Virus record (IMG/VR): IMGVR_UViG_2534681912_000006
Direction: 5' to 3' (one strand)
Source of the DNA: a virus
Lineage: Duplodnaviria > Heunggongvirae > Uroviricota > Caudoviricetes
DNA: 7,092 bases
The number at the start of each line of letters is the position of its first letter. Position 1 is the stretch's first letter. The position numbers were made by a program, and so were the translations under genes. This document shows positions 2,289 to 2,624 of this stretch, one piece after another. The notes under the pieces are model-generated. The model did no database searches. It was not told the DNA's origin and saw only the letters and a program-made list of their open reading frames with translations.

Positions 2289-2624
2289 TTATGGACTTTG
2301 TTGTTTTAGTCCATAAGGACATATTTGCAGAGTGCAACGGTTATTAAAGCATTCATTCAATACGTTATCTGTATTTGTAGGACATTCCTGGCTGTTTTTG
2401 ATTAAATTCCAGAATGTTTTATTGAATGGTGCTACGTTGTAAATGGTTACAGGTAGCACTTTGTTATTGAGCATGATACCTGTGTGAGTCAGTGTAAATA
2501 TACTTTCAGGAGGTAAGAAAGCATCCGATTGATACCAGATTATTAATTTTATTTTACTCCATATGACTGAAAAAGATATTCCGCATGATGGCTGGATAAC
2601 TGTATCAATCACAATCCACTTCAT
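2289..2624 (-). CDS. Hypothetical protein, 111 aa, Cys/Trp-rich, unrecognised; cargo (moron) gene on the strand opposite to the late operon
   Basis: Minus-strand ATG at 2624..2622, preceded by a good SD (AAGGAA, about 6-7 nt spacer). The ORF lies in a visibly AT-rich block, distinct from the flanking phage genes. Confidence 0.5.

Follow-up and report, generated by a model that had tools for sequence, protein, structure and literature searches.

The minus-strand open reading frame (ORF) at positions 2289–2624 of the window, our term for the whole 7,092-nucleotide stretch of viral DNA analyzed here, is almost certainly iraL, a moron, or lysogenic-conversion gene, in a lambdoid prophage; it carries its own σ70 promoter, and its product would stabilize σS via RssB. 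The gene is already known: iraL is published and annotated, with an established mechanism, and IraL is the fourth RssB anti-adaptor of Escherichia coli (Hryckowian et al. 2014, mBio 5:e01043-14, PMC4045071). Comparison of sequences establishes, for the present window, which gene this is, which promoter it has and what surrounds it; none of the results speaks against this assignment, and we infer that this copy acts like iraL of uropathogenic E. coli CFT073. The value of the identification lies in correct labelling, and it otherwise adds little: the PGAP label “IraM” hides the distinction between IraM, which is induced by Mg2+ starvation, and the log-phase IraL, which has been linked with uropathogenic and Shigella isolates. 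Of modest interest is that IraM-family genes occupy the same antisense late-region slot as stx of Shiga-toxin phages.

Identity of the ORF

The ORF runs from an ATG start to a stop codon that lies within the coordinates, and its product belongs to the IraM/IraL family of RssB anti-adaptors. The 111 residues include five cysteines (Cys14, Cys81, Cys92, Cys97 and Cys102) and four tryptophans (Trp3, Trp22, Trp30 and Trp72), in agreement with the initial annotation, which had described a Cys/Trp-rich minus-strand product of this length. The protein was there called unknown, but the gene has already been named and characterized as iraL, and its RefSeq/PGAP product name is “anti-adapter protein IraM”.

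We compared the window with CFT073 iraL, located at 43466–43801 on the minus strand of the potB-region sequence used for comparison. The coding sequences differ at four of 336 nucleotides (98.8% identity), and the proteins are identical at 110 of 111 residues, with Ala65 here and Val65 in CFT073 as the sole change; over the 701 nt that span promoter, coding sequence and 3′ hairpin, nucleotide identity is ~99%. In the study that described the gene, iraL was recognized by at least 95% identity over the whole coding region, a threshold at which iraL and iraM matches do not overlap (PMC4045071), and since the coding identity of the window gene to CFT073 iraL lies above this value, the gene is iraL by that definition. 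The two loci are alike in product length, Shine-Dalgarno sequence, promoter, downstream hairpin and slot, the last being located between the Q/tRNA genes and the genes for a DUF1737 esterase and a holin. They differ in the neighbouring esterase, which is truncated in CFT073 and nearly full length (frameshifted) in the window, and in an IS200 insertion after Q in CFT073.

CFT073 IraL is a paralogue of IraM, to which it is 58.9% identical, and is encoded on the potB island (PMC4045071). K-12 IraM (YcgW/ElbA) shares with the window protein the family, the fold region, the contacts to the RssB receiver domain, four C-terminal cysteines and a CPYG motif, and the two proteins align without gaps at 67 of 107 identical residues (63%), window IraL extending four residues (QQSP) beyond the end of K-12 IraM. 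This likeness, together with the name IraM in RefSeq and NCBIfam (NF007393, 162.4 bits at a cutoff of 121, residues 1–110 aligned with model positions 1–113/114) and a PhoP-box-like repeat upstream at 2720–2736, would fit the gene being IraM proper, the anti-adaptor of K-12 type that PhoP/PhoQ switches on when cells starve for Mg2+, and not the log-phase IraL. However, the protein is 99% identical to IraL, and its identity to K-12 IraM, 63% at the protein level and ~71% at the nucleotide level to K-12-type iraM copies, falls far below the at least 95% applied in PMC4045071. The surroundings are also unrelated: upstream of the ATG, window iraL and K-12 iraM cannot be aligned beyond ~10 nt, and the lambdoid late region of the window has no similarity to the flanks of K-12 iraM, whose locus lies beside e14. 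PhoP/PhoQ mediates the induction of K-12 IraM by Mg2+ starvation. IraL, by contrast, works in log phase without stress, and log-phase expression has already been reported for the CFT073 orthologue. We regard it as most unlikely that the gene is IraM proper, and retain its assignment as iraL.

Chain A of PDB entry 8TWD (IraM with RssB) gave a sequence match to residues 1–78 of the product (E = 2.2e-32), and the product matched phrog_4407, listed as “unknown function”, over its full length (E = 4e-73). When positions 2100–3000 were compared with complete E. coli genomes by megablast, 1429 genomes showed at least 80% query cover, and the ORF is labelled “anti-adapter protein IraM” there. The initial annotation had raised the question of whether the frame is kept in related prophages, and it is: the exact IraL protein occurs on at least 1000 contigs of a public collection.

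The G+C content is 34.2% in the ORF and 31.7% in the block 2255–2869, as against 50.7% in the remaining window, so that the gene does lie in the distinctly AT-rich block that had been noted (32–34% versus ~51%). A spurious ORF in AT-rich DNA was considered and ruled out by the exact conservation on at least 1000 contigs and by the experimental literature.

Promoter and transcript ends

The 5′ end of the CFT073 iraL mRNA has been determined by 5′ RACE on mid-log cells as ACATCACCAGCAAGGCATAAACAAGGAAACCA (opening ACATCACCAGCAAGG...) (PMC4045071). This sequence aligns with positions 2657–2626 of the window with two mismatches, which by homology places the transcription start site at 2657 on the minus strand and gives a 5′ UTR of 33 nt. 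From −100 to −2 relative to the start site the iraL promoter is identical to that of CFT073; the transcript differences from CFT073 amount to three nucleotide changes, at −1, +15 and +31. As the mark of an iraL promoter we required at least 96% identity to the CFT073 iraL upstream region together with the mapped start-site sequence, and both were found. The −100 to +33 promoter fragment of CFT073 iraL complemented the deletion and raised σS in K-12 (PMC4045071).

The hexamer TATACT (2665–2670, minus strand), 7 nt upstream of the start site and identical in CFT073, is the putative −10 element, and TTTACA (2686–2691, minus strand), which agrees with the consensus at five of six positions and is separated from TATACT by a spacer of 15 nt, is the putative −35 element. 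A plausible σ70 promoter had been suggested for the region 2625–2760, and the CFT073 RACE start at 2657 with these two hexamers (2670–2665 and 2691–2686) bears this out. A generic σ70 promoter scan did not list the RACE-supported promoter at 2657, because its spacer is 15 nt. The scan listed two other sites: 2732–2704, upstream of the gene, and 2573–2546, which lies inside the coding sequence and is probably a chance occurrence. The good ribosome-binding site of the initial annotation, AAGGAA, is present at 2630–2635 on the minus strand, 5 nt before the ATG, and is kept both in CFT073 and in the Stx2-phage variant described below.

At the other end of the gene, a G+C-rich 9-bp hairpin is predicted at 2233–2254, 35 nt past the iraL stop codon, and folds on both strands. 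A T-run comes after it on the plus strand, where it was scored as terminator-like; on the iraL strand there is no U-run behind it. The hairpin probably ends the upstream plus-strand mini-genes; in addition, it may stabilize or end the iraL transcript.

Of the traits of a moron, the window itself provides an own promoter, a 3′ hairpin, deviant G+C content and a position between phage genes, and expression in the lysogen comes from the CFT073 literature, where the orthologue is expressed in uninduced, exponentially growing cells (PMC4045071). This supports the original proposal of a moron expressed from the lysogen, as does the orientation of the gene opposite to the late operon, the flanking plus-strand genes being those of a lambdoid late region from Q to holin.

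Predicted interaction with RssB

Deletion of iraL in CFT073 lowers log-phase σS and shortens its half-life from ~5 min in the wild type to ~2.5 min, and iraL under its native promoter restores σS stability in the deletion strain (PMC4045071). CFT073 IraL co-purifies with RssB, and two-hybrid analysis indicates that IraL binds the RssB N-terminal domain only and IraM both domains (PMC4045071). The crystal structure of IraM(1–78) bound to RssB (8TWD) revealed a PmrD-like β-barrel by which the receiver domain of RssB is masked on its 4-5-5 face (PMC10844676).

We mapped the RssB contacts of IraM onto the window protein. All five cluster I contacts, which involve the N-terminal/receiver domain of RssB (IraM Ile4, Ile6, Trp22, Lys26 and Ile42), are identical, and substitutions relative to IraM are found in cluster II (RssB C-terminal domain: T13S and L75I) and cluster III (RssB linker and helix α8: H63N and I64V). 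The combination of kept receiver contacts with substituted C-terminal and linker contacts would fit binding of IraL to the RssB N-terminal domain only. By analogy with CFT073 IraL, the window protein is likely to bind RssB and to lengthen the half-life of σS. An AlphaFold2 prediction from a 12-sequence family alignment placed strands and helices in the order of the published fold, but with a pLDDT of 42.8 and a pTM of 0.28 the model is unreliable as independent evidence for the fold.

The proposed mechanism can be outlined as follows. In the uninduced lysogen, iraL would be transcribed leftward from its own σ70 promoter, against the Q-dependent late operon, to give a 111-residue cytoplasmic product composed of a PmrD-like β-barrel domain (about residues 1–78) and a cysteine-rich tail. 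IraL would bind the response-regulator-like adaptor RssB and so prevent the handover of σS (RpoS) to the ClpXP protease; σS would then be longer-lived and accumulate in exponential growth, which would prime the general stress response of the host.

A different partner can be envisaged, IraL being a connector in the manner of PmrD whose target is some response regulator distinct from RssB; it might, for instance, protect a phosphorylated receiver domain. PF11183.15, which we take to be the PmrD family, stands among the precomputed Pfam domains of all homologues, unlike in our own hmmscan searches of Pfam with window IraL and with K-12 IraM, which found no family at E ≤ 0.1 or at E ≤ 10. In the PDB, the IraM fold resembles only PmrD (r.m.s.d. 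~1 Å; PMC10844676), and PmrD is likewise a small protein that binds the receiver domain of a response regulator. However, its partner is PmrA and not RssB, the outcome is different, and PmrD is without a Cys-rich tail by the description in PMC10844676. With RssB binding and σS stabilization shown directly for CFT073 IraL, and with full conservation at the RssB receiver-domain contacts, we give hardly any credence to a connector role on another regulator; RssB is the expected target of window IraL.

C-terminal tail and PhoP-box-like repeat

Nine positions of the tail, Cys81, Pro82, Cys92, Cys97, Ile101, Cys102, Pro103, Tyr104 and Gly105, do not vary among 12 family members, the most distant of which is 53% identical, giving the pattern C-P-x9-C-x4-C-x3-I-C-P-Y-G across residues 81–105 (window 2289–2384, minus strand). 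The same C-terminal Cys pattern is present in a Citrobacter homologue (54% identity), and a pattern-based search for distant relatives did not recover Salmonella RssC. The C-terminal tail was removed for the IraM–RssB crystal and was termed less conserved and flexible (PMC10844676).

Upstream of the mapped promoter, a direct repeat resembling a PhoP box, TGTTTATTGTTTATTTA, is located at 2720–2736 (plus strand), −63 to −79 from the start site, and is a speculative element. A scan with the PhoP-box consensus KGTTTA-N5-KGTTTA, allowing at most one mismatch, returned this single match in the whole window (0.11 expected), but the statistics are marginal, since 5% of shuffled versions of the surrounding AT-rich intergenic sequence contain a match too. 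A similar repeat is found at the same position upstream of the Stx2-phage variant gene, and the position of the iraL repeat differs from that in the K-12 iraM promoter region. The upstream site of the generic scan, TAAACA-17-AATAAT (2732–2704, minus strand), overlaps the repeat and is a second promoter-like site; the two lie 40–75 nt ahead of the start site mapped in log phase. In our literature search, regulation of iraL by PhoP was not discussed, apart from mentions of IraM.

Taken jointly, the repeat and the tail could mean that: (i) iraL has a second, PhoP/PhoQ-induced promoter, as iraM does, and (ii) the Cys tail forms a small module that binds metal or senses redox state and through which the anti-adaptor's stability or activity is controlled. 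Both leads, drawn from sequence patterns, are weak, and we consider the two together unlikely, if conceivable.

Distribution and related phage genes

The exact IraL protein falls into a 90% cluster of 1045 members that is named IraM. With the iraL coding sequence as query in sensitive mode, a family member was found in 4759 of 5426 complete genomes; counting the best place per record, 1415 records lie at 95% nucleotide identity or above (iraL type) and 3330 at 60–80% (iraM type and others). The iraL type is present in about a quarter of the complete E. coli genome records. A scan of contigs for more remote relatives reached no further than Escherichia, Shigella and a single Citrobacter.

In the phage collection, iraL occurs at 98% identity in four induced phages (vB_EcoS-640R1 and relatives), and 41 further records, mostly Stx2a/Stx2c phages of O157:H7, carry a variant with ~75% nucleotide identity. 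The Stx2-phage variant (LC567829 “iraM”, 4503–4826, minus strand; also in phages 1717 and 2851 and in Stx2c phages) has 107 residues, of which 81 are identical to IraL and 70 to IraM. It lies outside both classes defined at 95% identity or above (iraL and iraM) and represents a third sequence variant. Slot and orientation are the same as for window iraL, antisense between the Q/tRNA genes and a nanS-p esterase gene, and homology to iraL extends into the upstream region (~75% nt), with the consensus TATAAT at the −10 position where window iraL has TATACT; the K-12 iraM upstream region cannot be aligned with that of the Stx2-phage variant either. In Stx2_EH2201 the genes are ordered Q – methylase – tRNAs – stx2A – stx2B – “iraM”(−) – yjhS esterase – holin, and because the slot is the same, the variant is a positional homologue of iraL. 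It is located directly downstream of stx2B on the opposite strand, whereas the window is without stx2AB; across related phages, the slot holds either stx2AB with the homologue or other cargo. The gene for the Stx2-phage variant is left unannotated in many records.

The distribution bears on a reading in which the gene mainly serves the phage: by a rise in RpoS or by sequestration of RssB it would adjust how often the prophage is induced spontaneously, when cells lyse or how superinfection ends, with the stress phenotype of the host as a side effect. Family members occupy the same late-region slot in many lambdoid phages, including the position directly after stx2B in O157 Stx2 phages, and the family is a PHROG, phrog_4407, of “unknown function”; moreover, as read from the gene order, late-operon transcription would run antisense through iraL on induction. 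However, the CFT073 prophage, with its IS200 insertion and truncated esterase gene, still gives the host phenotype, and K-12 iraM is host-regulated and maps a short way beyond the annotated limits of the cryptic prophage e14 (PMC4045071 places iraM on e14). The biochemical mechanism would be the same either way. We judge a mainly phage-serving role to be quite improbable and favor iraL as a lysogenic-conversion gene acting on σS of the host.

Prophage context and neighbouring genes

The window and the CFT073 potB prophage have the gene order Q – tRNAs – DUF3927 – fragment – iraL(−) – DUF1737... – holin – YdfR – lysozyme in common. On the plus strand, the antiterminator Q (Pfam Antiterm, E = 6e-49) and two tRNA genes (1125–1200 and 1301–1375) lie on one side of iraL, and the downstream late genes encode DUF1378, DUF826, a P21-type holin and a YdfR-like protein. 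Positions 1–187, in the N-terminal part of Q, did not align with three otherwise 99%-identical prophages (including CFT073 and NZ_AP021963); by this alignment, a mosaic junction lies within Q or immediately ahead of it. Toward the other end, past position 4973, identity to the closest genomes is only ~97%, with 13 gaps.

The tRNA gene at 1125–1200 (plus strand) was called tRNA-Met (anticodon CAT) by ARAGORN, as against tRNA-Ile by PGAP in related genomes. Lysidine modification would turn a CAT anticodon into one for Ile. Between the tRNA-Arg gene and the DUF3927 gene, an AT-rich stretch contains a 117-residue ORF (1488–1841, plus strand) that is without PGAP annotation in three related genomes; its residues 10–117 match phrog_2873 over the full length of that family (E = 4e-70), and it is likely to be a genuine phage gene that annotation has missed. 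The 43-residue DUF3927 gene (1877–2008, plus strand) matches phrog_1470, [quoted passage not shown], and is a further moron-type mini-gene in the iraL cargo slot, followed by the plus-strand terminator-like hairpin at 2233–2254.

The nanS-p-type esterase (DUF1737 + SASA + DUF6645; 2870–4845, plus strand) is split over two frames, with ORFs at 2870–3061 and 3052–4845. At the junction (~3041–3061) the window reads GTCACCCACCTGTGG and the intact 653-residue copy in NZ_AP021963 reads GTCACCACACCTGTGG, which corresponds to the loss of one nucleotide, so that the split reflects either a pseudogene or an error in sequencing. Further downstream, a 297-residue ORF (5779–6672, plus strand) has a YdfR/DUF1327 N-terminus followed by ~200 additional residues, and its match to phrog_1085 is full-length; its counterpart in the closest genomes is annotated as a truncated YdfR pseudogene.
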